Shown: positions 9,895 to 35,349, numbered from the stretch's first letter. The stretch: 64,000 bases of DNA from an uncultured Roseburia sp. (GCA_964410675.1 CAYPIB010000001.1:14454-78453); one strand, 5' to 3'. The notes: generated by a model from the letters alone, not told the origin. A program made the numbers and translations.

Positions 9895-10968
9895 ATGCGT
9901 CAAAAAAAAGAAAAAATTTTAATGTATATATTAATTATTACAATTTTTTTATTTTGTTTTTATATAATGGAAACAAGATATAAATTTTCATTTATAACTT
10001 GTATTTTCATGGTTTTATCATTGGAAATAAGTTTATATATTACAGAAATAGGAACGCTTATTTTTAAACTTTTAAGTGGATATGAATTTTCTTATATTCG
10101 CTTTTATAAATTATTACTTATTAAGAAAAACGGTAAATTTTACTTTAAAATAGTTTCTCCAAAAGTACTACCCTACATAACCTTTTCAGTCCCTCCTGCT
10201 CCGTTCAATCGACCTAAACTAAATTTTTGTTTACAATATAGCGGATATATCGCTAATTTAATATTTTCAATATTCTTTTTATTTTTACATTTAATAAACT
10301 TCGGTAAATATTATACCGGGATGTTTTTTTGGGGTCTTACTGTTTCTAATTTTCTTTTTGTTTTTTTGGGATTTATTCTTTTATTTATAAACAAGAAAAA
10401 TAAATTTGATTATAGCATGTGGATTTATTTGCAAATTTACTACCAAGCATTAAATGGTGTAAGATATAAAAATATGCCGCCTGAATGGTTTTCTATTCCT
10501 CAAGGCAACAATTTAAATAATACTGTTGAGGCTGTTAATTCTGTATTCACACTTAACCGTATGATAGATGAATTTAATTTTAAAGAGGCTGGTGAAATAG
10601 GTTCCTATATACTTAGTCAATCTAATGCACTGAGTCAGAATATAATTTTAATTATTAAAATGGAACTGGCTTTCATAGATATCATCGCGGGAACTTACAC
10701 AACTAATATACACTTATATATTAAAAATAATATGAATCATTTATTAAATAATTCTTCTTTGGCTCCTAGTTCATACCGACTGCTATATGCTTACGAGCTC
10801 CTCGTAAATAATAACGAGCCTGCTGCAAATAGGTATCTTTATTATTTCGATAACGCAATAAAGAAGTATCCTTTTCTCGGTGAAGCAGAAACCGAGCTTG
10901 AACTGATTTCTTATATTCATCAAAAACACCATGAAAAACACCTTACTTTATCCCTGCCAAGGTCCTGA
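9895..10968 (+). CDS. Polytopic membrane protein with a C-terminal helical soluble domain, possibly a degenerate M50-like pseudo-protease
   Basis: Multiple TM segments. TEIGTLIFKLLSG resembles the HExGH-x7-G block of site-2 proteases, with both His replaced by Thr. SD AGGGGA precedes the ATG. Confidence 0.55.
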   Translation: MRQKKEKILMYILIITIFLFCFYIMETRYKFSFITCIFMVLSLEISLYITEIGTLIFKLLSGYEFSYIRFYKLLLIKKNGKFYFKIVSPKVLPYITFSVPPAPFNRPKLNFCLQYSGYIANLIFSIFFLFLHLINFGKYYTGMFFWGLTVSNFLFVFLGFILLFINKKNKFDYSMWIYLQIYYQALNGVRYKNMPPEWFSIPQGNNLNNTVEAVNSVFTLNRMIDEFNFKEAGEIGSYILSQSNALSQNIILIIKMELAFIDIIAGTYTTNIHLYIKNNMNHLLNNSSLAPSSYRLLYAYELLVNNNEPAANRYLYYFDNAIKKYPFLGEAETELELISYIHQKHHEKHLTLSLPRS

Positions 10969-11992
10969 CTCCAGGGATTCTTTTCACAATTTCATAGCAT
11001 AAAAATGTCAGTAAGATACTGCCGCACATAATTAAAATAACTTGAAGAAAAACAATATTCACAGCTTGTACAATAAAATAAGCAAGTGCAACAAGAATTG
11101 ACTGATGAAAAATATAGATGGGATACGATGCTGAATTTAAATATTTTGTTACTTTATTTTGAAAATTCAAATATTTTCTTCCCATCAGTAAAAGACTTAA
11201 AATGCCCATCCATCCAACAAAATTTACAAGCAAATCACCATAATAAGAAAATTTAAAATACGCAGCTACTAATACTGCCTCTGCTATAAAGAAAACAATA
11301 TAAATTATTATTTTAGATTTTTCCAGTTTCTTTATAATCTCGTCATTACTTAAAACATAATATCCCAGAAGATATAGTACAAGGTTTTTCCCGAGACTAA
11401 AACCGCCGAAATTACCAATAAAATACATTCCCCACACTAGCAAAAACATTCCACAAATCACAATATTGGGAAACTTCTCAATATGCCTGCTAACTTTTTT
11501 ATATGCAATTTTTCTTGTAATAACAAGGCTAAAAGTAGAGACAAGGAACAAAAACAATATAAACCACAAATGGCCCGGCGAAAAGCCGCCATCATATCCA
11601 CTAAAATCCGTCAAATGAGTGAAGAAATATAAAAGATTTTCTAAAAAGCTTCCTTCATAAGAAAAGAAAAACTTTCTGGCATAAAGTGTCTGAATCGGAA
11701 CGAGAAAAATAAGTCCGGCAATAAATGGAATGAGCAATTTCTTTACCCGTTCAGCTATGAACTCCCTTTGAGTTCGTTTTTCAAGTGCATATCTCGCACA
11801 CATCCCGGCTATCACAAACAAAATCGGCATAAACCAAGGATTTACAATGACGATGAAAGTACTAAGCAACCTGTTACCTCCCGGCCAGACATAAAACTTA
11901 GTGCCAAAATCATTGTAGACCATAAATGTATGTACCGGGAATAAAAGCATAATCATAAATATCCTTAAATTATCCAAATAAAATTTACGCAT
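10943..11992 (-). CDS. Acyltransferase family 3 (OatA-like) integral membrane protein
   Basis: N-terminus MRKFYLDNLRIFMIMLLFPVHT is typical of acyltransferase_3, with about 10 TM segments. The ATG at 11992 follows GGAAGGA. The track ORF extends to 12028. Confidence 0.85.
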   Translation of the reverse strand: MRKFYLDNLRIFMIMLLFPVHTFMVYNDFGTKFYVWPGGNRLLSTFIVIVNPWFMPILFVIAGMCARYALEKRTQREFIAERVKKLLIPFIAGLIFLVPIQTLYARKFFFSYEGSFLENLLYFFTHLTDFSGYDGGFSPGHLWFILFLFLVSTFSLVITRKIAYKKVSRHIEKFPNIVICGMFLLVWGMYFIGNFGGFSLGKNLVLYLLGYYVLSNDEIIKKLEKSKIIIYIVFFIAEAVLVAAYFKFSYYGDLLVNFVGWMGILSLLLMGRKYLNFQNKVTKYLNSASYPIYIFHQSILVALAYFIVQAVNIVFLQVILIMCGSILLTFLCYEIVKRIPGVRTLAGIK

Positions 11993-21585: not shown

Positions 21586-23049
21586 TTAATTACAATATAA
21601 ATCCTTAATGGCAGGATATAACATTGTATATTTCAAATATTTCTCATCATATTTACGGACGAAGTTTTCATCCGGTAATATGCTTTCCTTTTGCTTTATA
21701 ATATTTTTGGCCGCTGTCTCTACATCTTTATATTCACCGCAGCCAACTGCTGCCAAGATAGCTCCGCCTAATGCTGGGCCTTCATCATTTTCCACTACAT
21801 TTACTTCTACATTTAGGACATTTGCAATGATTTTCTTCCAGAGTGAACTTTTAGCACCCCCACCACAAATATTGGTTTTTTTAATATTGATTCCCAATGC
21901 TTTGGATACCTCAAGCGAATCTCTTAATCCAAATGCAACCCCCTCTAGTACTGCCTGCGTCATATTTTCTCTTGTCGTATCCATACTCATTCCGCTAAAC
22001 ATTGCTCTTACATCAGGATTATTGTGCGGAGAACGTTCTCCCATCAGATATGGTAAGAAAAATACATTATTTTCACCAAGCTCTACAATATCTTTTTGCT
22101 CTGATTCATAATTTTTTGTCCTTATAATATCATTCATCCACCATTTATTACATGAGGCTGCACTCAGCATACATCCCATAAGATGATACTTTCCATCGGC
22201 ATGGGCAAATGAATGCAGCCCATAATTATGATCGACACTGAATTTATGATTTGTAATAAAAATTGTCCCTGATGTTCCCAAGGATATATTACACTTATGA
22301 TTGCCAACAGTACCAGTACCAACTGCTGCCGCTGCATTGTCACCGGCACCTGCCACAACACTTATTTGCCCCTGTAATCCTAATTCACTCATAATTTCGT
22401 CTTTCACTTGACCAACGATTTGATAACTCTCATGTAATTGGGGGAGCATCTCTTCTTTTATATTACATATAGTAAGCATTTCCTTTGACCAGCATTTATG
22501 CTTAACATCCATTAACAGCATTCCTGAGGCATCGGAATAATCTGTTGAAAAGGCTCCTGACAATCTATAAACTAAATAGTCCTTTGGCAGCATGATTTTG
22601 TTTATTCCAGCAAAATTTTTTGGCTCATTTTTTTGTAACCATAGTATTTTAGGAGCCGTAAAGCCAGCAAATGCTATATTAGCAGTATAGGAAGTTATCT
22701 TTTCTCTGCCAATTTCATTATTTAAATAATCGGTTTCGGCAGCAGTTCTTCCGTCGTTCCATAAAATCGCAGGACGGATTACTTGATCGTCTTGATCTAA
22801 TATAACAAGGCCATGCATTTGTCCGCCAATACCGATTCCGGCAATCTGGGTTTTATCATACTCCCCTACTAACTCCTTGATACCCTCAATACTTTTTTCA
22901 TACCAATCGTTAGGATTTTGCTCTGACCAGCCCGGTTTTGGAAAATATAACTTATATTCTTTAGAAACTTTATTTAAAATTTGACCATCTTTATCCATTA
23001 ATAAAAGTTTGACTGCCGAAGTTCCCAAATCAATACCAATATAAAGCAT
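21586..23049 (-). CDS. FGGY-family carbohydrate kinase, xylulokinase-like
   Basis: MLYIGIDLGTSAVKLLLMD, GGQMHGLV, and C-terminal GGGAKS. It resembles XylB, but substrate assignment is uncertain in this context. Confidence 0.88.
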   Translation of the reverse strand: MLYIGIDLGTSAVKLLLMDKDGQILNKVSKEYKLYFPKPGWSEQNPNDWYEKSIEGIKELVGEYDKTQIAGIGIGGQMHGLVILDQDDQVIRPAILWNDGRTAAETDYLNNEIGREKITSYTANIAFAGFTAPKILWLQKNEPKNFAGINKIMLPKDYLVYRLSGAFSTDYSDASGMLLMDVKHKCWSKEMLTICNIKEEMLPQLHESYQIVGQVKDEIMSELGLQGQISVVAGAGDNAAAAVGTGTVGNHKCNISLGTSGTIFITNHKFSVDHNYGLHSFAHADGKYHLMGCMLSAASCNKWWMNDIIRTKNYESEQKDIVELGENNVFFLPYLMGERSPHNNPDVRAMFSGMSMDTTRENMTQAVLEGVAFGLRDSLEVSKALGINIKKTNICGGGAKSSLWKKIIANVLNVEVNVVENDEGPALGGAILAAVGCGEYKDVETAAKNIIKQKESILPDENFVRKYDEKYLKYTMLYPAIKDLYCN

Positions 23050-23060
23050 AAGCTTTCCTC

Positions 23061-24536
23061 CTAATTAAATGGATTTTCAGTTAAGTACATCATACCCTTT
23101 GGCTGATTAAAGTTTATCTCATCCGGTATTACTCCAATATATTTAAATACTTCATATAAAATTTTCCCATGATGCCCAAATGCAACTGCCCCATGATGCG
23201 GATAATTCTTTTCTATTAATACATGTCGATAAAACCTTCCCATATCCGGAATTGCAAAGATACCGATTGCGCCAAACGATCTTGTTGCTACCGGAAGAAC
23301 TTCACCCTGTGCAATATATGCTCTCAGCTTTGCATCTGCTGTGCTTTGTAGTCTAAAGAAAGTTATTTCCCCCGGTATGATATCTCCTTCTAATGTTCCG
23401 TTCGTTACTTCCTCCGGCAGACTTCTTGCCATGATTTTTTGATTCCGCATTTCACAAGATGATAATTTAGTGGACGGTGTATTTCCACAATGGAATCCCA
23501 TAAAGGTATCTTTATGTGTGTAGTTAAATTTGTCTTTTATTTCCTCTTCGTATATATCCTTTGGCACTGAATTGTTAATATCCAATAACGTAACAGCATC
23601 CTCACTTATAACCGTACCGATAAATTCACTTAAAGCACCGTAAATATCAACCTCACATGACACCGGTATTCCCATTTTAGTAAGACGGCTATTAACATAA
23701 CAAGGAACAAAACCAAATTGGGTTTGAAAAGCCGGCCAGCATTTTCCTGCTATGGCAACAAAATCCCTGCTGCCCTGATGATCCTTCACCCAATCAAGAA
23801 GTGTTATTTCATATTGTGCTAATTTATTCAGAATCCCCGGTTTTTTATTGCCTGCACCTAACTCCTCTGCCATATCTTTTGCAACTTTTTCTATTCTTTT
23901 ATCGCCTTCATGATTTTTAAAAGATTCTAATAAATCTAATTCAGAGTTTTCTTCAATCTCAACACCTAAATTATATAACTGCTTAATCGGAGCATTGCAG
24001 GCTAAGAAATCTTGCGGACGCGGACCAAAGCTTATTATTTTAAGATTTCTCAGACCGATAATAGTTCTCGCGATACTTGTAAACTCCCAAATCATCTCGG
24101 CGCATTCTGCTGCTGTCCCAACCGGATATTCAGGTATATACGCTTTAAGATTACGAAGCTTTAAATTATAGCTGGCATTCAGCATACCACAGTAAGCGTC
24201 GCCCCTGTCATCCAGCAGCTTATCACCGGCCTCTTCTGCTGCCGCAATTACCATTGCCGGTCCATCAAATTCCTTTATTAATAAAGTTTCTGCGGATTCC
24301 GGTCCAAAGTTGCCCAGATATACTACTAAAGCATTACACTGCGCCTCCTTTATATCAGCAAGCGCCCTTCTCATATCCAATTCATTTTCAATGCAAATCG
24401 GGCATTTATAAATTTCCCCATATTTCTCTGTATAAGCTTGTACAACAGCATCTCTCCTATTTTCTGATAAGCTCATTGGAAAGCAGTCACGGCTGACTGC
24501 TACAATCGCTGTTTTTGCTTTTGGCATATTTTTCAT
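23061..24536 (-). CDS. L-fucose/L-arabinose isomerase-family protein
   Basis: About 490 aa. The pattern KTAIVAVSRDCFP..ALVVYLGNFGPE and the C-terminal sugar-isomerase-like region resemble COG2407-type isomerases. This is recognition by eye only. Confidence 0.65.
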   Translation of the reverse strand: MKNMPKAKTAIVAVSRDCFPMSLSENRRDAVVQAYTEKYGEIYKCPICIENELDMRRALADIKEAQCNALVVYLGNFGPESAETLLIKEFDGPAMVIAAAEEAGDKLLDDRGDAYCGMLNASYNLKLRNLKAYIPEYPVGTAAECAEMIWEFTSIARTIIGLRNLKIISFGPRPQDFLACNAPIKQLYNLGVEIEENSELDLLESFKNHEGDKRIEKVAKDMAEELGAGNKKPGILNKLAQYEITLLDWVKDHQGSRDFVAIAGKCWPAFQTQFGFVPCYVNSRLTKMGIPVSCEVDIYGALSEFIGTVISEDAVTLLDINNSVPKDIYEEEIKDKFNYTHKDTFMGFHCGNTPSTKLSSCEMRNQKIMARSLPEEVTNGTLEGDIIPGEITFFRLQSTADAKLRAYIAQGEVLPVATRSFGAIGIFAIPDMGRFYRHVLIEKNYPHHGAVAFGHHGKILYEVFKYIGVIPDEINFNQPKGMMYLTENPFN

Positions 24537-24540
24537 ATCA

Positions 24541-25497
24541 TTACCTCACATTTTTTATATTTAGTTTATTTACTATTTTATAATAGATTCCATCTGCATC
24601 CAGACCATATTTTTTCAAAAGTTCTTTTGCTGAACCTGATTCTCCATAAACATCCTCCATACCAATTTTGTGTACAGATACCGGATATTTTTCAGATAAT
24701 ACCTCACATACAGCACTTCCTAATCCTCCTATAACAGAATGCTCTTCAACTGTAAATATCTGTTTTGTTTCTTTGGCCGCCCTTACAATAACGGCCTCAT
24801 CGATTGGTTTGATTGTATGTATATTAATGACTCTTGCCTCTATCCCCAGCCCCGCTAACCTTTGTGCAGCTTCCAGTGAAAATGCGGCTTCTAAACCGGT
24901 TGCAATAATTGTAAGATCATTTCCCTCTCTTAATGTCACACCCTTGCCTAATTCAAAATGATAGCCGGTATTGTCATTTATGATTGGAGCCGCCATTCTG
25001 CTAAACCTCATATAAACAGGTCCTTTGTAATAATAAGCCGCTTCAACTGCTGCTTTTGCCTCTATATCATCAGAAGGATTTATGATAACCATCCCCGGTA
25101 TTGTTCTCATTAACGCAATATCTTCGTTGCACTGATGAGACGCGCCATCCTCTCCTACTGTTATTCCCCCATGAGTTGCTCCGATTTTTACATTAAGCTT
25201 CGGATAACCAATACTATTTCTTACTTGTTCAAATGCCCTTCCGGCGGCAAACATTGCAAAGGTACTTGCAAAGGGTATCCTTCCTGTTGCTGCAAGCCCT
25301 GCCGCAATCCCCATCATGTTACACTCTGCAATGCCGCAGTCAACATGTCTCTTAGGAAACTTTGCTTTAAATATGCTTGTCTTGGTCGCCATTGCTAAAT
25401 CGGCATCCAACACAATTAAATTATTATTACTTTTACCTAAATCAACTAAAGCATTACCATAGCTATCCCTTGTTGCTATTTTTTTTACATCTGACAA
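24541..25497 (-). CDS. Transketolase, C-terminal (pyrimidine-binding) subunit
   Basis: TRDSYGNALVDLG, DADLAMATKT, GIAECNMMGIAAGLA, HQCNEDIALMR. Overlaps the upstream subunit gene by 13 nt. Confidence 0.92.
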   Translation of the reverse strand: MSDVKKIATRDSYGNALVDLGKSNNNLIVLDADLAMATKTSIFKAKFPKRHVDCGIAECNMMGIAAGLAATGRIPFASTFAMFAAGRAFEQVRNSIGYPKLNVKIGATHGGITVGEDGASHQCNEDIALMRTIPGMVIINPSDDIEAKAAVEAAYYYKGPVYMRFSRMAAPIINDNTGYHFELGKGVTLREGNDLTIIATGLEAAFSLEAAQRLAGLGIEARVINIHTIKPIDEAVIVRAAKETKQIFTVEEHSVIGGLGSAVCEVLSEKYPVSVHKIGMEDVYGESGSAKELLKKYGLDADGIYYKIVNKLNIKNVR

Positions 25498-26948
25498 AGT
25501 AATTCACCTTCTTTCCTAAGCTCATTCATTGCTATTTCATATTCGTTATCATTAGGTGCCTTACCATGCCAATTTACATTGTTTTCCATAAAAGAAATTC
25601 CTTTTCCTTTTACTGTACCGGCAATAATTGCTGTTGGTTTATCTTTTATATTCCTGGCTTCTAAAAATGCTTCTTTTAATTGTTTAAAATCATGACCATT
25701 TACGTTAATTACATGAAAATTAAATGCTTTGAATTTATCAGAAATCGGATAGGGTGAACATATCTCTCCTATTTCACCATCTATCTGCAAATTATTGTTA
25801 TCTACAATGACGACAAGATTATCTAATTTCCTTGCACCGGCAAACATTGCCGCTTCCCACACCTGTCCCTCTTGCAGCTCTCCGTCTCCTAACAATGTAT
25901 AGACCCGGTAAACTGAGTTTGTCAGCTTTGCTGACAGCGCCATCCCTACCGCTGCTGAAATTCCTTGTCCCAGCGAACCACTGCTCATATCGACTCCCGG
26001 TATATGTTTCATATCCGGATGCCCTTGTAAATAAGAGCCTAATTGCCTTAAGGTTTTTAAATCCTCTATCGGAAAAAAACCACGGTATGCCAATGTTGAA
26101 TAGTATCCCGGTGCTGTATGCCCCTTTGATAATACAAATCTATCCCGATTACTAAAATCATTATTTTGGGGATTTATGTTCATCTCATCAAAATATAAAC
26201 ATGTAAATATATCTGCCGCAGACAATGAGCCGCCGGGATGACCAGACTTTGCATAATAAATGGAAGTTATAATTCCCTGTCTAATTTTATTCGCCATTGT
26301 TTGAAGTTCCACTTCGTTTAGTATGCACATAACTTCTGCCGTGACATTTTCCCCTTTTAATCCGCAAAAACTATTTTTAATATTTACGTCTTTATGTGAC
26401 AAAAGCCATTTATTTTTAGCAAACAGCATTTTCTCATCTAACTTATCCGGTTTTTCAATATGGTAATCCGTATTTGTTCCCTTTGGTAATATTACAATAC
26501 ATTTAAATCCCTTATCTTCTGCATTACAAGGAGCATAATGAAGTGTTGTTGAATATAGTTCAACACCAACTCCTTTCGGTATTAAAAAGGCTTCCACGTT
26601 TGAAGTCGCATAGGTTCCGTCTTCTTCTATATCCTGTCTCAGCCCCAGTATTAGTATCATATCAGTTACTGCAATATTGACTTCTGAGGACATATGATAT
26701 TCTAAAGCGTTTAACTTTTTATTTGTTCCAAGGCAATACCCTGCTTGTATCGGCAGACCGCCAAATACACCTTTTTCTAATTCCTTAGCTTCATCTAACT
26801 CTTCTAAGCTGTCTATGGACGGCACATATATGACATCATTAACATTTGTTGCATGTGTCATCTCCTTGATTAAACTTTCGAAATGATATTTCTTTAGTAT
26901 TCTTCCATATTTAACAAAATTCTCACTATTAATTTCATTAATAATCAT
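25485..26948 (-). CDS. Fusion protein: ~215-aa N-terminal DUF4867-like domain plus the transketolase N-terminal (TPP-binding) subunit
   Basis: From about aa 218, ANKIRQGIITSIYYAKSGHPGGSLSAADIF, LSKGHTAPGYY and LLGDGELQEGQVWEA match the split-transketolase N subunit. The preceding 215 aa (ENFVKYGRILKKYHFESLI...) are unrelated to it. The frame is continuous. The ATG at 26948 follows GGAGG. The track ORF starts at 26960. Confidence 0.85.
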   Translation of the reverse strand: MIINEINSENFVKYGRILKKYHFESLIKEMTHATNVNDVIYVPSIDSLEELDEAKELEKGVFGGLPIQAGYCLGTNKKLNALEYHMSSEVNIAVTDMILILGLRQDIEEDGTYATSNVEAFLIPKGVGVELYSTTLHYAPCNAEDKGFKCIVILPKGTNTDYHIEKPDKLDEKMLFAKNKWLLSHKDVNIKNSFCGLKGENVTAEVMCILNEVELQTMANKIRQGIITSIYYAKSGHPGGSLSAADIFTCLYFDEMNINPQNNDFSNRDRFVLSKGHTAPGYYSTLAYRGFFPIEDLKTLRQLGSYLQGHPDMKHIPGVDMSSGSLGQGISAAVGMALSAKLTNSVYRVYTLLGDGELQEGQVWEAAMFAGARKLDNLVVIVDNNNLQIDGEIGEICSPYPISDKFKAFNFHVINVNGHDFKQLKEAFLEARNIKDKPTAIIAGTVKGKGISFMENNVNWHGKAPNDNEYEIAMNELRKEGELLCQM

Positions 26949-27017
26949 ATTTTCCTCCATTAAATACTATAATCTTTACTTAAAGAATATCAATTTTTCA
27001 CTACTTTTTCTCGTCAG

Positions 27018-27047
27018 ATATTGCTATTTATTTATGAAATATTGCTA
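27018..27047. promoter_or_regulatory. Pair of direct repeats ATATTGCTA-N12-ATATTGCTA upstream of the transketolase operon (putative AraC-type operator)
   Basis: Exact 9-mers at 27018-27026 and 27039-27047, with 21-bp start-to-start spacing. The same motif pair recurs at 29341-29370. Confidence 0.6.
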
Positions 27048-27053
27048 ACATTA

Positions 27054-27092
27054 TAAAAAAGAAAAGTCCTTGCAATATCACAAAGACTTTTC
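27054..27092 (-). terminator. Rho-independent terminator after the GH3 gene
   Basis: GAAAAGTCCTTG .. CAAAGACTTTTC stem, followed on the minus strand by a T-run (plus-strand AAAAAA at 27055-27060). Confidence 0.7.
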
Positions 27093-27100
27093 TTTAACTA

Positions 27101-29212
27101 TTATATATTTATTTTATAGCATTCCTTACCGAGAAGTTCTTTTGTTCTTGCATCCGGTTGACCAAAACCAATATAAATAATTGCATTTTTACCATCTGCA
27201 CATTCTTCCCCATTTTCATTAATGGTATAAAACATCCGCGCCGGAATATTCATTAAAACATCTTTTTTATGACCGGATTTTACTGCAACTCTCTTAAATG
27301 ATGCTAATTTGTGATGTAACACTTCGTTTTTACTCTCTGTTACCTTTACATATATTTGTAACACTTCATGAGTATCTATATCGGTATCATTGCTAACCGA
27401 TATCTGCAATGCCGCTCCCTCTTTTGCTGCTTCCACGTAGCTTACTTCGTTAACCATTTTTACTTGATTGATTTGTAATTGCCCATATGTTAAGCCATAT
27501 CCAAACGGATACAACGGCGCCTTCTCAATATACTTATAAGTTCTCCCTTTCATACTGTAATCGGTAAACTCTGCCATCCCCTCTAAATCCTTATATATTG
27601 TAATTGGCAGCTTCCCACTTGGCTGCTGTTTGCCAAAAATTATTTCAGCAATTTGTTTGCCGCCTCTTCCTCCGGGATACCATGCTTGTAATATTCCGTT
27701 TGCATGTTCTGAGCTATAACATAAATCCATTGCACTTCCTGCCATAACACAAAGAATAAATGGAACTTTAGTCCGGACAATTGCTTCTAATAATCTAAGC
27801 TGCGAATCCGGAAATTGTAAATCAATTTTATCACCTGACGCATCTGAATTACCGGTATCTCCTTCTTCACCTTCTAATGTCTCATCAAGTCCTAAGCATA
27901 ATACAACTAAATCCGAATGATTCGCAATCGTAACTGCCTCAGACAGCCGATCATCCGGTCTTGCTAAATCTTCCTTTCTATTCTTATATAAGTGGCAGCC
28001 TTCGGAATACAATACTCTAATATCCTCTCCTGCCTCATCCAAAATACCGTCAAGTACGGTAATATATTTTGAAGACGTACCATAGTAATTTCCGATTAGT
28101 GCTCTGCGGCTGTTAGCATTTGGTCCGATTACGCCAATCCTTTTTACCTTTTCTCTATTTAGCGGCAGTATTCCATCATTTTTTAACATGACTATACTTT
28201 CACAGGCTGCTCTTTCTGCTAATTCTAAATGCTCCTTACACTCTACTTTCTCATATGGAATATGATCGAATTTAGTCTCATCAAACATTCCTAATACCAT
28301 CCGGGTCGTAAACAATCTAACTGCTGATTTTTTTATTGTCTCCTCTTTCACTAATCCTTCATTATAGGCACTTACTATTCTTTCATACGTACAGCCGCAA
28401 TTTAAATCACAGCCCATCTCCAATGCCAATTTCACCGATTCTTCCGGCCTGCTTGTTACCTTATGTTTTTCATGGAAATCTCTGATAGCCCAACAGTCTG
28501 AAACATAGTGGCCAATAAATTCCCACTTTCCTCTCAAAATCTCATTCATCAGCATCGGATGTGCACAGCAGGGATCACCGTTCGTCCGATTGTATGCTCC
28601 CATAACTGCTTCCACACCCCCATCCTTTACACACATTTCAAAGGCTGGTAAATAAGTTTCCCATAAATCCTTCAATGATGCCTCTGCATCAAAATAATGC
28701 CTCATTTCCTCCGGTCCTGAATGTACTGCAAAGTGTTTTGCACATGCCGCGGTTAGCATATATTCATCTTCACCTTGCAAGCCTTTGATAAATGCTACAC
28801 CTAACTTTCCGCTTAGATACGGATCCTCTCCATAAGTCTCATGTCCTCTTCCCCATCTTGGATCTCTAAAGATATTAACATTAGGCGACCACAATGTCAG
28901 ACCTTTATATATATCTCTGTCACCCTGTTTCGAAGCTTCATTATATTTTGCTCTTGCTTCTATAGCAACAGCCCTGCCTACTTGACTTAATAATTCTTCG
29001 TCAAATGTTGCTCCCAAACCGATTGCCTGCGGAAACACAGTCGCAGTACCTGCCCTTGCTACACCATGCAGTCCTTCATTCCACCAGTTATATTCAGGAA
29101 TGCCCAGCCTTTCAATTGCAGGTGCATCGAATTTAAGCTGCGAAGCCATTTCCTCAATTGTCATTTTTTCTACTAACTCCGTTGCTCTTTTGATTGCTTT
29201 TTTTCTATCCAT
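27101..29212 (-). CDS. Glycoside hydrolase family 3 (beta-xylosidase/beta-glucosidase type), cytoplasmic
   Basis: YNWWNEGLHGV, KHFAVHSGPE, a nucleophile region GHYVSDCWA, and a C-terminal Fn3-like domain. No signal peptide. Confidence 0.9.
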   Translation of the reverse strand: MDRKKAIKRATELVEKMTIEEMASQLKFDAPAIERLGIPEYNWWNEGLHGVARAGTATVFPQAIGLGATFDEELLSQVGRAVAIEARAKYNEASKQGDRDIYKGLTLWSPNVNIFRDPRWGRGHETYGEDPYLSGKLGVAFIKGLQGEDEYMLTAACAKHFAVHSGPEEMRHYFDAEASLKDLWETYLPAFEMCVKDGGVEAVMGAYNRTNGDPCCAHPMLMNEILRGKWEFIGHYVSDCWAIRDFHEKHKVTSRPEESVKLALEMGCDLNCGCTYERIVSAYNEGLVKEETIKKSAVRLFTTRMVLGMFDETKFDHIPYEKVECKEHLELAERAACESIVMLKNDGILPLNREKVKRIGVIGPNANSRRALIGNYYGTSSKYITVLDGILDEAGEDIRVLYSEGCHLYKNRKEDLARPDDRLSEAVTIANHSDLVVLCLGLDETLEGEEGDTGNSDASGDKIDLQFPDSQLRLLEAIVRTKVPFILCVMAGSAMDLCYSSEHANGILQAWYPGGRGGKQIAEIIFGKQQPSGKLPITIYKDLEGMAEFTDYSMKGRTYKYIEKAPLYPFGYGLTYGQLQINQVKMVNEVSYVEAAKEGAALQISVSNDTDIDTHEVLQIYVKVTESKNEVLHHKLASFKRVAVKSGHKKDVLMNIPARMFYTINENGEECADGKNAIIYIGFGQPDARTKELLGKECYKINI

Positions 29213-29340
29213 TTTGTATCCCTCTTTATGATTAAATATTTTAATATAAATAAACCATTTTAAATCTGAGCATGCTCTTCTTTTATTTTAAAATTGGTTT
29301 ATAATAATGATAGGCATTTTTCTGCATAAACTCATCTCAA

Positions 29341-29370
29341 ATATTGCTATAAACTTAACTAATATTGCTA
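29341..29370. promoter_or_regulatory. Pair of direct repeats ATATTGCTA-N12-ATATTGCTA in the divergent GH3/AraC intergenic region
   Basis: Exact 9-mers at 29341-29349 and 29362-29370, with 21-bp spacing, identical to the pair at 27018-27047. Confidence 0.6.
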
Positions 29371-29511
29371 ATATTTAAAATACATCTTTTGTTTTTTTTA
29401 AAAACTTTATAAAATTAGGATAGAAGGGAAATTCATAAAATATTCAAGGTATTCAATTATTCATATGTCACTATAAATTTTTTACTATTTGAGTTTAAGG
29501 GGGATTGTCAT

Positions 29512-30465
29512 ATGAGAAATATGAAAGAAAAATCAAGCGGAGAAACACCGATACTATACAGGCAGCCTTTTAATGACTTTCCAGGCAGAACTGTGATCGA
29601 CAATATTGAAAACGTCAATTTTATGAAAAAGTCTAAAATGCGTTTTTGGTACAATAATCAAACCGAAGAATATGGTACTCATTGGCATGATGCCATGGAA
29701 ATTATTATTCCAATAGAAGAATCCTATAATGTTAATATAAATGATAAACTATTTAACATTAAAGAAAATGAAATATTATTTATTCCTTGCGGTGCCACTC
29801 ATTCTATCTGCACCCATGAATTCGGGGCTAGATTTATTTACCTTATCGATGTTTCGTTATTTTACCAGCTTTCAGATTTTCAGATGCTGTCATCACTTTT
29901 CATGCAGCCATTTTCATTTTCTAAAAACTCGCACCCTTATATATATGATAAACTCTATTCAAGATTTATGAAAATGAATAAAATCTATTTTTCAGGAGAT
30001 ATCTTTTGGGAGTTTTCTATTTACTCACTTTTAATGGAAATATTTACAGCAATCGGAATCAGTCAATTTAAAAGTATCAATACGAATACCCAGCCTTCAA
30101 AGCAAGTGGAATATTATGAAAAATTTTCTAATTTATTATATTATATTGACACTCACTATAATGAAAATTTAACGTTAGAATATATGGCTGATTTAGCCGG
30201 ATTTTCTAAATTTCATTTTTCCCGATTGTTTAAGCAGTATACGAATTATACATTTTATGATTACCTTTGCTATAAGCGCATTCAAGCCTCACAAGCTTTA
30301 TTATCTACTCATATATCCATTACTGAAATCGCATTTCAAACCGGCTTTAATAACCTTTCAACATTTTGCAGAACATTTAAAAAATACGTTAATTGTTCTC
30401 CTACAGAATATCGAAATACCTCTGAGCAGCTGATGCAGGCAAATAATAATTTATGCGAATTGTAA
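29512..30465 (+). CDS. AraC-family transcriptional regulator (cupin sensor plus double HTH)
   Basis: N-terminal cupin-like region (WHDAMEIIIP). C-terminal LTLEYMADLAGFSKFHFSRLFKQYT .. ITEIAFQTGFNNLSTFCRTFKKY. Confidence 0.92.
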   Translation: MRNMKEKSSGETPILYRQPFNDFPGRTVIDNIENVNFMKKSKMRFWYNNQTEEYGTHWHDAMEIIIPIEESYNVNINDKLFNIKENEILFIPCGATHSICTHEFGARFIYLIDVSLFYQLSDFQMLSSLFMQPFSFSKNSHPYIYDKLYSRFMKMNKIYFSGDIFWEFSIYSLLMEIFTAIGISQFKSINTNTQPSKQVEYYEKFSNLLYYIDTHYNENLTLEYMADLAGFSKFHFSRLFKQYTNYTFYDYLCYKRIQASQALLSTHISITEIAFQTGFNNLSTFCRTFKKYVNCSPTEYRNTSEQLMQANNNLCEL

Positions 30466-30496
30466 CTTATATATTAAGTGGTTTGTGAAACTTATA

Positions 30497-30545
30497 AAGG
30501 ACTATCACACTTGTTAAAAATTTAGTGAGACAGTCCTTATTTTAT
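30497..30545. terminator. Hairpin between convergent araC-like and permease genes
   Basis: AAGGACTATCACAC .. GTGAGACAGTCCTT, followed by ATTTTAT. Confidence 0.55.
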
Positions 30546-30565
30546 ATCATTATTAAAATTTTGTA

Positions 30566-31408
30566 TTATCCTTTGACACTGCCGAGTGCTACACCTTCTA
30601 TGATGTATTTGGATAAGATTAAATATACGATAATTAATGGTAATACCGTTAATGTTAATCCTAAATAAACAGAACCATACTCTGTTTTATATATATCTCC
30701 GCGAAGCAGGCTGACCATAATCGGCATTGTATATTTATCTTTATTTGTCAGTAGTACTAAAGGAGTAAACAAGTTGTTCCAGCTTGAAACAAAACTAAAA
30801 ATAGCTTGTGTTGCAAGCGCAGGTTTTAAAATCGGAAGTGCAATTGTATTAAATATTCTAAACTCATTTGCACCATCTATTCTTGCAGAATGGACAACCT
30901 CTAATGATAAAGATGGCTGTATATACTGTCTCATAAAGAATACCATCGATGGAGAGGCGATTGCAGGCAAAATCAGCATCATTAAATTATTTGTCAGATG
31001 AACACGATATACCATTTGATAAAATCCTATCATGGTGATTTGTGCCGGGATCATCATAATAGCCATGACAAAGCTAAAAAATGGTCCTTTCAGCCTCCAT
31101 TCATAAACGACTAATGCATAAGCAGTTAAGGCAGAAAAATATACCGCACAAGCAGTTGAGCCTACTGATATAATGACTGAATTGGCAAATCCTACTATCG
31201 GATTAAAGCTCTTTCCAAGGAGAATTAATAAATTTTTGAGCGTATAACTTGAAGGGAGTAATGAAATAGCATGCTGTTGAATTTCTGTTGTCGATCTTGT
31301 GGCATTTACAATCATAATCCAAAATGGCAAAATGCTTAATATTGCTAAACATATACATACTATATATATGATTACTTTTATTAATTTAGTTGTTCTATTC
31401 TTTAACAA
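30566..31408 (-). CDS. Carbohydrate ABC transporter permease (MalG-like)
   Basis: Six TM segments and an EAA-like loop ARIDGANEFRIFNTIALPILKPA. The probable TTG start directly abuts the upstream stop codon. Confidence 0.9.
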   Translation of the reverse strand: MLKNRTTKLIKVIIYIVCICLAILSILPFWIMIVNATRSTTEIQQHAISLLPSSYTLKNLLILLGKSFNPIVGFANSVIISVGSTACAVYFSALTAYALVVYEWRLKGPFFSFVMAIMMIPAQITMIGFYQMVYRVHLTNNLMMLILPAIASPSMVFFMRQYIQPSLSLEVVHSARIDGANEFRIFNTIALPILKPALATQAIFSFVSSWNNLFTPLVLLTNKDKYTMPIMVSLLRGDIYKTEYGSVYLGLTLTVLPLIIVYLILSKYIIEGVALGSVKG

Positions 31409-32377
31409 TTACCTCCCCTCCCTTCTATATTTTCTCTGCATTTTTATATACCTTTTTAACTTCTCTTCCTCTTTATCCCTAAGTAAGAAAAACATAATTG
31501 CTGATAAAATAGCAATAACGACAAACATGATCATACTGGCTGCTGCTGCCCTATTATACATATAGCTGCCGCTAAAGGCTTGATTATAAATAAATACACT
31601 TGTTGTAAGGGTCGCATTATCCGGTCCCCCTAATAAGAATAATTTTGGAATATCAAACATATTTAAGCCGCCGATTAAGCTCGTAACAAGAGTAAAGAGC
31701 AAGATTGTTTTAATATTTGGTATCGTTATAAAGAAAAAAGTCTGAACTCTGTTTGCCCCATCTACCTCTGCTGATTCAAATATTTCCGGACTAATGCCAA
31801 GGACACCTGAAATAAGAATGATCATAGTGTAGCCATACCACATCCAAAATTGAATAAAAGCCACAATTCCTTGGGACAAGTCCTTATTTATTAAAAATTT
31901 TATTGGTTCATCTGTTATTCCAAATCTCATGAACAAATCATTGACCGGTCCCATTGGATATCCAAAGAGTGAATTAAATAGTATCGCTATTGTAGCTGCA
32001 GTAATAATATTGGGCATATAAAACAGAACTTTAAAGATTCCCTGTCCTTTTATCTTACTTCGTTTATCTGTAAACCACGCTGTCAGCAATAATGCTATTA
32101 CAATTTGAGGAATAAAGTTACTAATCCATATTTTTACTGTATTCCAAAGGGCCGTCTTAAAAGATGGGTTTACGAGAACATGCTTAAAGTTCTGAAACGG
32201 ATCCTCTAAAAAGTGAAACGATGTAGCTCCCAAACCTTTAAAGTCTGTAAATCCAATTACAGCTGTATATATAATTGGATACAGGGAAAAAATCAAAAAG
32301 GTAATTACAAAAGGAATACAGAATATGTAACCGTATTTCGCATATTTTGCATTTCCCAATTGTTTTTTACGTTTCAT
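31409..32377 (-). CDS. Carbohydrate ABC transporter permease (MalF-like)
   Basis: EAA loop AEVDGANRVQTFFFITIPNIK. The ATG at 32377 lies 8 nt after GGAGG. It has an unusual basic C-terminal tail. Confidence 0.9.
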   Translation of the reverse strand: MKRKKQLGNAKYAKYGYIFCIPFVITFLIFSLYPIIYTAVIGFTDFKGLGATSFHFLEDPFQNFKHVLVNPSFKTALWNTVKIWISNFIPQIVIALLLTAWFTDKRSKIKGQGIFKVLFYMPNIITAATIAILFNSLFGYPMGPVNDLFMRFGITDEPIKFLINKDLSQGIVAFIQFWMWYGYTMIILISGVLGISPEIFESAEVDGANRVQTFFFITIPNIKTILLFTLVTSLIGGLNMFDIPKLFLLGGPDNATLTTSVFIYNQAFSGSYMYNRAAAASMIMFVVIAILSAIMFFLLRDKEEEKLKRYIKMQRKYRREGR

Positions 32378-32421
32378 TGTATCCACCTCCGCTTTCCATT
32401 ATTTTATTTTTAGTACTTGAT

Positions 32422-32460
32422 TTAAAAAAGAGGCGGATATATTTAAGCTATTCCGCCTCT
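32422..32460 (-). terminator. Intra-operon hairpin plus T-run between the binding-protein and permease genes
   Basis: AGAGGCGGA .. TCCGCCTCT stem, followed on the minus strand by TTTTTT (plus-strand A-run 32424-32429). Confidence 0.7.
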
Positions 32461-32494
32461 TATATAAGACTTTAAAATATTAAATAATGATAAT

Positions 32495-33928
32495 CTACTC
32501 TACTACAATATCCAGATTATCCGTAACCTGTTGTTTGAAGTCTGCAATTGCCTGTTCACGGTCTTTATTTCCTGCTGTATATTCACGTACTTGCTCACGC
32601 CAAAACTTATTAATTGTCTCATCATATTGGGTTAAGTTTTTGCCGTTTGCAAATTGGTTAGCCGGAACAAATACATCAAACATATTCTGGCCGCCTAAGA
32701 ACTCAACACTACCATCAGATTTTGCCATTACTGTACCACTGCCGACACAGTCTTTTGTACCGCCTTCGCCGTTAAGCGTTCCGTTCGCCCACTTATATTG
32801 AAGCCCTTCTTCTGTATTATCTAAAGTAATCCATTCAATAATATCGCCAATTGCTTCCTTCTTTTCAGAATCTTTATTTGCCAGTAACCAAGTACCGCCC
32901 CAGAAGAAACCAACCGGTGATTCACAAACCGCCCAATCACCATATGTACCTTCACCAACTGCTTCACCACCACAGTTAGGTGCCAATGTATAGTTAATTA
33001 ACCATGCCGGACCAAAAAATCCAAATATTTCTTGGCTTCCTTCACCCTTCATGTCTGCAAACCATGCATCCTGCCAATCCTCTGTATCATTGTGGTAACC
33101 ATTGTCTTTTAATTCCTTTGATAAATCTAAGAAAGCCTCTCTCTTTGGATCAATCGTTAACTTTCCATCTTGGATCCATCCCTGACTGGAGCTATTTTCT
33201 ACTGCATGCCAGATATCCCCATCACCTGATACAATACCATAATTTTTTGCCTTCAGCTCTTCTGCCGCTTTGTAAAATTGATCCCATTCGCCTGAGCCTG
33301 AACCAATTTTTTTAGCAATTTCAGCCGGGTCATCAGTACCCCATACGTCTTTTGCAATAGAACGGCGGTAGATAAATGCTCCACCTGTTGCCTGATATCC
33401 CAGTCCTACTACATCTCCGCTTTCATTCGTTCCTATATCAACAGAGTATTGAGCAATTTCTGACTCCTTAATTGCTGTATCAATATCAATACCAAGATCT
33501 TTATATGGTGCGGCATAAGAAGAAGCATCACCCTTTGAATATTTAAGGATAAAAGCTGCCTCTGCACAATAAATGTCAGGTGCATCCTTTCCGCCTGCTG
33601 ATAATGCCTGATCAAGTGCCGGCTGATAAGCACCATCCGTTGTCGCAATAATAGTTGTATTAATTTCATAACCAAAATCAGGATGTGCTTCCTTATACTT
33701 CTCAATCATCTTTGGAACTTCATCTGTAAATGACCATAAATTAATGACTTCTTTCCCTTTTTTAGAAGTGTCATCCTGTTCTTCCGTTGTTGCATCTGTA
33801 GTTTCCTCTGTAGTACCCTCTTCCATACTAGGTTCTGTACTAACTGTGTTTTCTGTATTACCTCCACACCCCGCTAACGTTGAGGCTAAAAGGCACATAC
33901 ACAAAGCTCTTGCAATTAGTTTTCTCAT
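32495..33928 (-). CDS. Extracellular solute-binding lipoprotein of the sugar ABC transporter
   Basis: Lipobox LAGCGG followed by an acidic/Thr-rich linker. The size and Trp/Gly-rich pattern are typical of family-1 sugar SBPs. Confidence 0.88.
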   Translation of the reverse strand: MRKLIARALCMCLLASTLAGCGGNTENTVSTEPSMEEGTTEETTDATTEEQDDTSKKGKEVINLWSFTDEVPKMIEKYKEAHPDFGYEINTTIIATTDGAYQPALDQALSAGGKDAPDIYCAEAAFILKYSKGDASSYAAPYKDLGIDIDTAIKESEIAQYSVDIGTNESGDVVGLGYQATGGAFIYRRSIAKDVWGTDDPAEIAKKIGSGSGEWDQFYKAAEELKAKNYGIVSGDGDIWHAVENSSSQGWIQDGKLTIDPKREAFLDLSKELKDNGYHNDTEDWQDAWFADMKGEGSQEIFGFFGPAWLINYTLAPNCGGEAVGEGTYGDWAVCESPVGFFWGGTWLLANKDSEKKEAIGDIIEWITLDNTEEGLQYKWANGTLNGEGGTKDCVGSGTVMAKSDGSVEFLGGQNMFDVFVPANQFANGKNLTQYDETINKFWREQVREYTAGNKDREQAIADFKQQVTDNLDIVVE

Positions 33929-34044
33929 TTTTCTTCCTCCTTATTCTACTCTACTCAGTTGATAAACAGTTACCTAACACAGCAAAAATTTCCTTGCCTG
34001 CGATATTGTTATTTTATTATAACTATACCAAAGTTGCTTCCCAC

Positions 34045-34074
34045 TTATTGCTATTGTTTATACACTTTTTGCTA
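34045..34074. promoter_or_regulatory. Degenerate copy of the 21-bp-spaced repeat pair (TTATTGCTA-N12-TTTTTGCTA) upstream of the SBP gene
   Basis: 9-mers at 34045-34053 and 34066-34074 share the TTGCTA core and the 21-bp spacing of the two exact pairs. Confidence 0.45.
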
Positions 34075-34253
34075 ATAAGAAACTTTTTTCACACGAAACT
34101 TGGTTAATATTGTATAATATTTTTATAATTCAATTAATTTGTATTGCATTTATCCAAATATTTATTGTGTAAAATCACTTTTTTATACAAAAACTACAAG
34201 CGGCTTACATGGCAACTTTTGTATTATACACCATGCACGATAGGAGGAATATT

Positions 34254-34889
34254 ATGAATGATTTTTTCAATCCAGACAAACCTTTCAATCGTTATTTAGC
34301 GAAATTTTTTGATTTAATACTTTTAAATATCATTTTCTTAATAAGCTGTATTCCTGTTTTTACAATTGGAGCATCAATCACTGCATTATATTCTATTACA
34401 TTTAAAATGCTGAAAGATGAGGATTCTGATTTATTAAGAAGATATATAAAAGCATTTAAAATGAATATTAAACAGGCCACTATTTTATGGATTCCAATAC
34501 TTTTTATTTTTATATTCTTTTTGGCTGATTTATATATCATTTATGGGTTAATCAATCCTTCCTATAGAATACTTCAATATCCGGTTTGGTTTATTATTAT
34601 AATATTGCATTGCATCGCTATGTATATTTTTCCATTGTTATCATACTTTAATAGTAATAACAAGCTGTTAATAAAAAATGCCGTATTTATGAGCATCGGT
34701 CATTTTCCGACAACATTAATCTTCTTAATCGTTCATGTTGTAATTTTTAGTATGTGTATTTCCATTCCCAATTTTATAATTATTATTTTTAGTTTCGCAT
34801 TATTTTTTGGATTTTCTTCTCTTACATACGCTTACTCCTTTTTATTTCAGAATATCTTCAAAAAACATATGAATCAGCCTCTAACTTAA
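34254..34889 (+). CDS. YesL-family (DUF624) membrane protein
   Basis: MNDFFNPDKPFNRYLAKFFDLILLNIIFLISCIPVFTIGASITALY is the typical YesL N-terminus. The ATG at 34254 follows TAGGAGGAA. Confidence 0.85.
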   Translation: MNDFFNPDKPFNRYLAKFFDLILLNIIFLISCIPVFTIGASITALYSITFKMLKDEDSDLLRRYIKAFKMNIKQATILWIPILFIFIFFLADLYIIYGLINPSYRILQYPVWFIIIILHCIAMYIFPLLSYFNSNNKLLIKNAVFMSIGHFPTTLIFLIVHVVIFSMCISIPNFIIIIFSFALFFGFSSLTYAYSFLFQNIFKKHMNQPLT

Positions 34890-35349
34890 CAGCAAATTTA
34901 AATAGTCAATAATCCTGCAGATTCCGCTGCGCCCATATCACCGGATTGCTCCGGATGTATCGTATTTGCCTCCAGCTTCGCAGGATGCTTGTCTATATCA
35001 ATATCCTTTTCCTTTACATACGTTGATAATAATTCGGTATCTTCCTCTTTAACTACAGTATTATTCACTAAAGCTAAGCAAATAGAGGGCTCCTTTTTAC
35101 CTTCCACTTATGTTATCTTTGTATCATAATTTATAGATTTTTCTTATGCAACTGAATCTATGCTAAAATTGTTATTGAATTTAACAGTTATTGCTAGTTA
35201 AATACCTATTATAATTTATTTAAAATTCACATACAGGATAAATTGTCAAATTATTCATTTGTTATTCCTTTTTTATCACACAACTGTTATAATGTTATAT
35301 AACTTGATAGTTTATTAGGTAACTTGCTGATTTATGACGGGAGGCCATA

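Follow-up and report, generated by a model that had tools for sequence, protein, structure and literature searches.

Phased direct repeats before three sugar-utilization units as putative operators of an AraC-family regulator in a Lachnospiraceae genome

Introduction

What reads the three pairs of short direct repeats that mark a carbohydrate locus of an uncultured Roseburia sp.? The locus lies in a 64,000-nt stretch of DNA, here called the window (GCA_964410675.1, CAYPIB010000001.1:14454-78453), and holds a transketolase/isomerase/kinase operon, a GH3 glycosidase gene, a divergent AraC-family regulator gene and an ABC importer operon. Lachnospiraceae are major gut and rumen fermenters of xylan and xylo-oligosaccharides (XOS). 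An original prediction, made from the window alone, had described a repeated TTGCTA core with 21-bp spacing upstream of all three transcription units, named the AraC-family protein as the candidate binder and proposed that the operons form one regulon. We find that the repeat pairs are best explained as putative operators of this regulator, a reading to which we give a probability of about 0.8, and that operators of the same form lie upstream of xylan-related genes in other genera of the family.

Results

Three repeat pairs and their rarity

A scan of the window located TTGCTA-N15-TTGCTA at 27021–27047, 29344–29370 and 34048–34074, on the plus strand every time, against 0.04 matches expected from dinucleotide-preserving shuffles. 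The exact 21-bp spacing and the common orientation claimed for the pairs hold at all three sites, and the degenerate pair at the third promoter is present as described (TTATTGCTA at 34045 and TTTTTGCTA at 34066). The gene assignments were also right according to Pfam and NCBIfam, which place the pairs upstream of the catabolic operon, in the spacer between the GH3 and AraC genes and upstream of the ABC gene. As all three sites are upstream of minus-strand units, the functional reading of the core is TAGCAA, towards the genes. The nonamer ATATTGCTA, said to occur four times as two pairs, does start at the four positions given for it (27018, 27039, 29341 and 29362); its count in the window is six, against 1.6 expected, and the two additional copies are unpaired. 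We take these lone copies, at 31339 (plus strand, within a permease gene) and 51646 (minus strand), as chance matches, with half-site scores below 11 and no partner.

The TTGCTA core occurs 1683 times in the whole genome assembly (2.89 Mb, 207 contigs, 37% G+C), and four pairs of cores have the 21-bp spacing, three of which are those in the window. The fourth is located on a different contig in G+C-richer surroundings. Each remaining spacing between 7 and 60 bp is represented by zero to three pairs. The repeat pairs are real and far beyond chance.

A 17-bp half-site

Alignment of 26 half-sites in gene orientation yields a 17-bp consensus, about TAGCAATATTTGTAAAG, and each site is composed of two such direct half-sites whose starts are 21 bp apart. 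The phasing is exact in the three window sites and in more than 20 sites elsewhere. Information is spread over positions 1–17 of the half-site, with peaks at AGCAA (positions 2–6), G12 and G17. The occurrences of the TTGCTA core and of the nonamer therefore stand as first described, and the unit does not: what is conserved is the 17-bp half-site rather than a 6-mer or a 9-mer.

We scored the whole genome with the full weight matrix at fixed 21-bp spacing, a check proposed with the original prediction. Only the three window pairs, all read on the minus strand, score above 21, and the next best pair in the genome scores 20.0; the motif pair is not common. Site 2, in front of the GH3 gene, ranks first with a pair score of 41.0, composed of the distal half-site TAGCAATATTAGTTAAG (29354–29370, score 20.0) and the proximal half-site TAGCAATATTTGAGATG (29333–29349, score 21.0). 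Site 1, in front of the catabolic operon, ranks second with 34.1; its distal half-site TAGCAATATTTCATAAA (27031–27047, score 15.0) is part of an exact TTGCTA-N15-TTGCTA pair, and its proximal half-site is TAGCAATATCTGACGAG (27010–27026, score 19.1). Site 3, in front of the ABC operon, ranks third with 31.1, from the distal half-site TAGCAAAAAGTGTATAA (34058–34074, score 13.8), which is identical in Hungatella sp. UBA5385, and the proximal half-site TAGCAATAAGTGGGAAG (34037–34053, score 17.3).

The window also contains a lone strong half-site, TAGCAATAACTGTTAAA (35180–35196, minus strand, score 19.5), between the DUF624 and Cache-EAL genes. It pairs only with a TAACAA core, at a spacing of 22 bp, lacks a TAnnnT hexamer at offset 38 and is not followed by a gene on the same strand. 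Decay of a former site or a chance match may explain it.

A fixed distance to the predicted -10 box

The sites share a second geometric constraint. In 20 of 22 sites, drawn from 14 loci, the distance from the first base of the proximal half-site to the start of a TAnnnT hexamer is exactly 38 nt, and any other offset is found at most three times. The dinucleotide TG often stands directly upstream of the hexamer. At this offset, and on the minus strand, the window has the predicted -10 boxes TATTCT (26984–26989, with TGa before it) for the DUF4867-transketolase/isomerase/xylulokinase operon, TATCAT (29307–29312) for the GH3 promoter and TAAAAT (34011–34016) for the ABC operon.

If the TAnnnT hexamer is the -10 box, then the two half-sites span roughly positions -70 to -54 and -49 to -33. 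On these predicted -10 boxes, the proximal one reaches into a poor -35 region, which is the class II layout of AraC at araI and of XylS at Pm. The sites thus combine the two marks of an AraC/XylS class II operator, namely direct half-sites of about 17 bp phased by 21 bp and a fixed distance to the predicted -10 box.

Conservation of the operator in other Lachnospiraceae

The closest orthologous locus belongs to Hungatella sp. UBA5385 (our locus L007), whose regulator is 83% identical and whose ABC proteins are 86–89% identical to those of the window; the Hungatella regulator gene is not adjacent to a GH3 gene. Over the site and the -10 box of the ABC binding-protein promoter, 76 of 78 positions are identical between the two genomes. 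The conserved block begins 5 bp before the distal TAGCAA, takes in the predicted -10 box and ends about 10 bp beyond it; nothing is conserved upstream of the block. In this alignment the block is a clean phylogenetic footprint.

Beyond Hungatella, other Lachnospiraceae genera have the same motif in the same orientation at more than 14 loci, and almost all of these adjoin homologues of the regulator (35–83% identity). Four loci fetched through regulators of about 50% identity have the synteny GH3<->AraC<-permeases<-SBP or GH10-MCP-AraC<-ABC, where SBP is the solute-binding protein, and their SBP, GH3 and GH10 genes are preceded by the repeat pair in the same orientation. A family-wide scan, with one genome per genus, contributed intergenic sites in front of an SBP operon (genome G097, 78% identity), a GH3 gene (G027) and a GH11 xylanase gene (G249). 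Altogether, sites lie upstream of GH3 genes in G027, G015 and L095, of GH10 genes in L096, L097, L009 and G136, of GH8 plus GH43 genes in L008, L010 and L016, and of GDSL esterase plus GH43 genes in G015. In the loci of homologues with 35–43% identity, they precede GH8 plus GH43, GH10, GDSL esterase plus GH43, GH3 and large binding-protein genes. Every target of the site that could be annotated is xylan-related, and by annotation the linked genes include GH10, GH11, GH8, GH43, GH3, GDSL esterase, SBP, permease and XylB genes, as one would expect of a xylan/XOS regulon. The conservation upstream of orthologous genes on which the original prediction depended was therefore found, both in the Hungatella footprint and in same-form sites across many Lachnospiraceae.

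A geometry-constrained pattern gave about 68 matches in 151 genera, against about 13 in reversed-sequence controls, and the genes beside its high-scoring intergenic matches are again GH10, esterase, SBP, permease or AraC genes. The plain pattern TTGCTAT-N14-TTGCTAA is not enriched family-wide, with 34 matches in 401 genera and a similar number in controls; these matches fall mostly in coding sequence, and only the intergenic ones by xylan genes are informative. We set aside one array of TTGCTA/TTGCTT cores in G412 (L081, 9850–10010), which consists of tandem repeats of about 42 bp between ruvB and a U32 peptidase gene, stops 18 bp before the start codon and, though it resembles the motif, is probably unrelated.

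Could such repeats arise without a dedicated binder, as duplicated or horizontally moved promoter cassettes or as chance repeats in AT-rich DNA? The 86–89% identity of the ABC operon proteins to those of another genus suggests horizontal transfer, and seven genomes of the same genus contain no regulator homologue at E<=1e-30. Taken together, the 83–89% identity to a locus of another GTDB genus and the lack of a same-genus homologue suggest that the module was horizontally acquired. Yet the window sites have only the half-site positions and the -10 box in common, and differ in their spacers and flanks; the motif also recurs before non-homologous xylan genes in many genera. Set against an expectation of 0.04 pairs, the rarity of the pairs, the offset-38 rule and the gap in matrix scores largely refute this explanation, and we regard it as very improbable.

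Three further arrangements were seen at the other loci. At the L095 locus (regulator about 51% identical), the ABC operon is gone, and its promoter, the operator pair, a ribosome-binding site and an ATGAAAAAAA start remnant are left at 11000–11120, between the regulator terminator and a DUF624 gene; judged by this layout, the operon seems to have been deleted recently, leaving its regulated promoter as an orphan. L096 (9931–9968) and L097 (about 9900–9950) have, immediately before the regulator gene, a conserved degenerate pair, CGGCAAAA-N..-T(C/G)GCAATTAA, which faces away from that gene and has TAAAAT at offset 39; it may serve in autoregulation or as an antisense promoter. The GH10 promoter of L096 (5782–5850) has three TAGCAA boxes with spacings of 31 and 21 bp, and the additional upstream half-site, three helical turns off, may allow cooperative or alternative binding.

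The AraC-family regulator as candidate binder

The candidate binder is a protein of 317 aa encoded at 29512–30465 on the plus strand, divergent from the GH3 gene. It possesses the two helix-turn-helix (HTH) motifs of the AraC/XylS family, with matches to HTH_AraC (E=1.8e-22, in two stretches) and HTH_18 (E=3.2e-22) that are both above the Pfam cutoffs, and its matches in the PDB are SoxS, Rob, MarA and the AraC DNA-binding domain. Its N-terminal part matches AraC_binding (E=0.005, 17 bits, cutoff 21.1) and Cupin_2 (E=0.15) weakly, and most of its homologues with 45–54% identity carry precomputed PF02311/PF07883 matches. Against the NCBIfam model for AraC itself (NF007860), it scores 53.5 bits versus a cutoff of 208. 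The regulator is a member of the AraC family and is not an orthologue of Escherichia coli AraC.

Regulator and operator are linked. A regulator homologue at E<=1e-50 is present in six of six genomes picked by the motif, and one at E<=1e-30 in 5 of 61 relatives, counting the window's genome. Conversely, among 13 loci fetched by regulator similarity alone, ten have the site no more than a few kb away, in most cases in the divergent spacer beside the regulator gene. No 21-bp-phased site is present in G012, where the regulator is 40% identical and lies beside XylB, or in the loci L005 and L006/L085. The recognition region of the first HTH motif, GFSK(F/Y)HF(S/T)RLFK, is kept in the motif-bearing loci and is more divergent in three site-less ones.

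Several observations weigh against assigning the operators to this protein. The motif is seemingly common to homologues of 35–43% identity (45–51% in the DNA-binding domain), a breadth that appears unusual for one specificity and would leave room for a different conserved binder; that the lineage keeps its DNA specificity to an unusual degree is the likelier of the two readings. In G097 and G249 the sites and the homologues are on different contigs, far from one another, and the nearest homologue in G027 is 35% identical. The orthologous GH3<->AraC spacer of L098 (143 bp) has no recognizable site. A matrix built from the other genomes' sites alone speaks for the assignment, as it ranks the window sites first, second and fourth among all positions of the window's genome, but this test is only partly independent since the external sites were found through their likeness to the window core; the gene context of the external sites and their spacing to the -10 box are independent of that core-based search. 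Lastly, site 1 is accompanied by a consensus sigma-70-like promoter, TTGATA-16-TATAGT (26993–26966), which overlaps the proposed -10 box, and operon 1 may therefore also show activator-independent expression.

The first of these points raise the question whether the operators are real and are bound by a different, unlinked factor conserved in Lachnospiraceae, such as an AraC-output response regulator or another direct-repeat binder, with the adjacent AraC gene merely co-located. Such a factor would account for the occurrence of one motif at loci where the local AraC homologues have no more than 35–50% identity, and for the G097 and G249 sites that are not beside a homologue. It would not account for the ten of 13 loci noted above, no other regulator gene recurs in the regulator-homologue loci, and the window's genome has a single protein of this subfamily (E<=1e-30) and exactly three sites. 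We consider an unlinked binder improbable.

The layout of the promoters bears on a different question, which is whether the adjacent AraC-family protein binds and mainly represses, or acts in both ways, by occluding the -35 region when its inducer is absent. E. coli AraC represses in the absence of arabinose. The proximal half-site overlaps the -35 region and could occlude RNA polymerase, and the promoter that site 1 overlaps is close to the sigma-70 consensus. Against repression stand the poor -35 regions and the site-to--10 distance that is rigid in 20 of 22 promoters; a distance fixed to the base pair is expected from contact between protein and polymerase, not from steric blocking. No distal looping half-site was found, and sugar-catabolic AraC/XylS members of the same geometry are activators (PMC8579813). 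A mainly repressing or dual role is unlikely, to about the same degree as an unlinked binder.

Binding by the adjacent AraC-family regulator is thus favored, and its candidacy and the grouping of the operons into one regulon, as originally proposed, are supported by motif rarity, conservation, regulator linkage and the fixed distance to the predicted -10 box. Under the proposed mechanism, the two HTH motifs of one monomer would contact one half-site, first at the AGCAA box and then at G12 and G17. These three elements are about one helical turn apart, which fits two HTH motifs per monomer. A dimer would occupy about -70 to -33 of each promoter and activate in the class II manner, as at araBAD or Pm, with the proximal half-site over the poor -35 region and at a fixed distance to the -10 box. 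An inducer, probably xylose or a xylo-oligosaccharide, would bind the N-terminal cupin-like domain and lead to the recruitment of RNA polymerase. Three units would then be switched on: the XOS ABC importer, the GH3 beta-xylosidase-like enzyme and a xylose-to-pentose-phosphate operon made up of a FucI-family isomerase, XylB and a split transketolase with a DUF4867 domain. From the DNA and its annotation we infer binding by the regulator, activation over repression, the start sites and the inducer.

Genes of the locus and a proposed pathway

Operon 1 covers 21586–26948 on the minus strand, and its genes abut or overlap. By Pfam it encodes a DUF4867-TktN fusion (25485–26948), TktC (24541–25497) and a FucI-family isomerase (23061–24536), followed by the xylulokinase XylB (21586–23049), which matches the NCBIfam XylB equivalog model with 581 bits versus a cutoff of 380. 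The first gene most likely starts at the ATG at 26948, preceded by the ribosome-binding site GGAGG (26953–26957), rather than at 26960. A strong intrinsic terminator with a 17-bp stem and a following T-run (27058–27095, minus strand) separates the GH3 gene from operon 1, and site 1 therefore serves its own promoter.

The GH3 glycosidase (27101–29212, minus strand) has the Pfam GH3 N-terminal, C-terminal and Fn3-like domains. Its best NCBIfam match is the beta-xylosidase Xyl3A, with 720 bits, which is under the model's cutoff. In the region 29250–29300, an inverted repeat AAACCAATTTTAAAA...TTTTAAAATGGTTT surrounds the palindrome GAGCATGCTC (29268–29277). Given the predicted -10 box at 29312–29307, the repeat is inside the 5′ untranslated region of the GH3 transcript, which would be about 88 nt long; it could form a stem-loop in the RNA or act as a second operator, and it is unlike the cre sequence quoted in PMC5171806.

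The ABC importer operon (30566–33928, minus strand) encodes the solute-binding protein (32495–33928) and two permeases (31409–32386 and 30566–31408), both with the Pfam domain BPD_transp_1. Its orthologues, at 70–89% identity, stand behind the same motif in other genera. Divergent from it is a gene for a DUF624/MusI-family membrane protein (34209–34889, plus strand; Pfam DUF624, NCBIfam MusI_fam), which is a possible member of the regulon; in L095, a DUF624 gene is located downstream of a site of the same type.

A genome-wide profile search found neither XylA (TIGR02630) nor GH10 in the window's genome, and consequently the organism looks like a scavenger of xylo-oligosaccharides. The proposed pathway would begin with ABC import and GH3 cleavage, continue with a non-canonical isomerization by the FucI-like enzyme or DUF4867, and then lead through XylB to transketolase and the pentose-phosphate pathway. 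Co-regulation with XylB hints that DUF4867 or the FucI-like enzyme acts in xylose conversion. DUF4867 has matches in 176 of the 401 Lachnospiraceae genera sampled, and nearly all the listed matches are stand-alone proteins of about 210 aa; in the window it is fused to the N-terminal transketolase subunit. As a negative control, the weight matrix was applied to a total of 105 kb of carbohydrate loci that surround DUF4867 genes in 29 other genera, and it found no site. The presence of site 1 is therefore specific to this lineage, a recruitment rather than a conserved feature of the DUF4867 operon.

Discussion

The proposed operator resembles that of E. coli AraC at araI (I1-I2) of the araBAD promoter. 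There, too, the regulator has two C-terminal HTH motifs, its gene is divergent from a target operon for sugar catabolism, and the operator consists of two 17-bp direct half-sites in 21-bp phase, the proximal one over the -35 region. The N-terminal domain of AraC is of the cupin type, to which the window regulator has a weak match. The araI half-site also begins TAGC, as the half-site here does. In contrast to E. coli AraC, the identity of the window regulator is confined to the HTH region, the half-sites otherwise differ in sequence, we found no distal looping site of the O2 type, the host is a Firmicute, the targets are xylan and XOS genes, and the promoters number from three to many per genome. 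XylS at Pm of the Pseudomonas putida TOL plasmid, RhaS and MelR likewise use 21-bp direct repeats at about -70 to -35, of which the proximal one overlaps the -35 region by a few bp. Class II activation by AraC/XylS proteins depends on exact phasing. The effector, the pathway and the half-site sequence all differ from those of XylS.

Related carbohydrate regulators have been described in other bacteria. In Caldicellulosiruptor, PecR, PecR2 and HemR control predicted AraC-family carbohydrate regulons; as their sites, tandem repeats separated by large spacers were predicted in front of promoter elements, and the proteins were inferred to be activators (PMC8579813, Rodionov et al. 2021). Like the regulator here, these are local AraC-family regulators of poly- and oligosaccharide loci in Clostridia, but their regulons are pectin-related, xylan is under XynR there, the motif differs and the host here belongs to the Lachnospiraceae. 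The hybrid two-component systems of Bacteroidetes xylan polysaccharide utilization loci have an AraC-type HTH output, and similar tandem-repeat sites have been predicted for them (PMC10766802), whereas they are membrane sensor kinase fusions with a GTTAC-type core and -33/-7 promoters. E. coli XylR and the ROK-type XylR of Firmicutes control xylose uptake and catabolism, as we propose here. Neither is an orthologue of the window regulator: the former has a periplasmic-binding-protein-like sensor domain, and the latter is a repressor on palindromes.

Our search of published papers found none on this operator or on a soluble AraC-type xylan regulator of Lachnospiraceae. A 2024 review of bacterial hemicellulase regulation (PMC10766802) does not name any Lachnospiraceae, nor does it list a soluble xylan regulator of the AraC type whose operator is defined. 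The transcription start site paper on C. phytofermentans presents a xylan-cluster motif in a figure only, and its supplements contain neither TAGCAA nor TTGCTA. The operator seems undescribed so far. Its mechanism would be that of a textbook AraC/XylS protein and would therefore hold little surprise for specialists.

The operator and its fixed geometry provide a sequence-based route to xylan and XOS genes in isolates and metagenome-assembled genomes, for example to the DUF4867-transketolase/FucI-like operon. They offer a candidate inducible promoter-regulator pair for genetic tools in Lachnospiraceae and, for a genome without xylose isomerase, a hint from the regulon at the function of DUF4867. 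A broader interpretation, which we put forward tentatively and hold to be possible at somewhat less than even odds, is that the family shares a master xylan regulon, in which one AraC-type lineage (35–83% identity) would recognize one 17-bp half-site in a rigid geometry and would, in this organism, also have captured an unconventional pentose operon. If true, this regulon would, in gut and rumen genera alike, control XOS importers, esterases and enzymes of the families GH10, GH11, GH8, GH43 and GH3, and DUF4867 and the FucI-like enzyme would be assigned to xylose catabolism.

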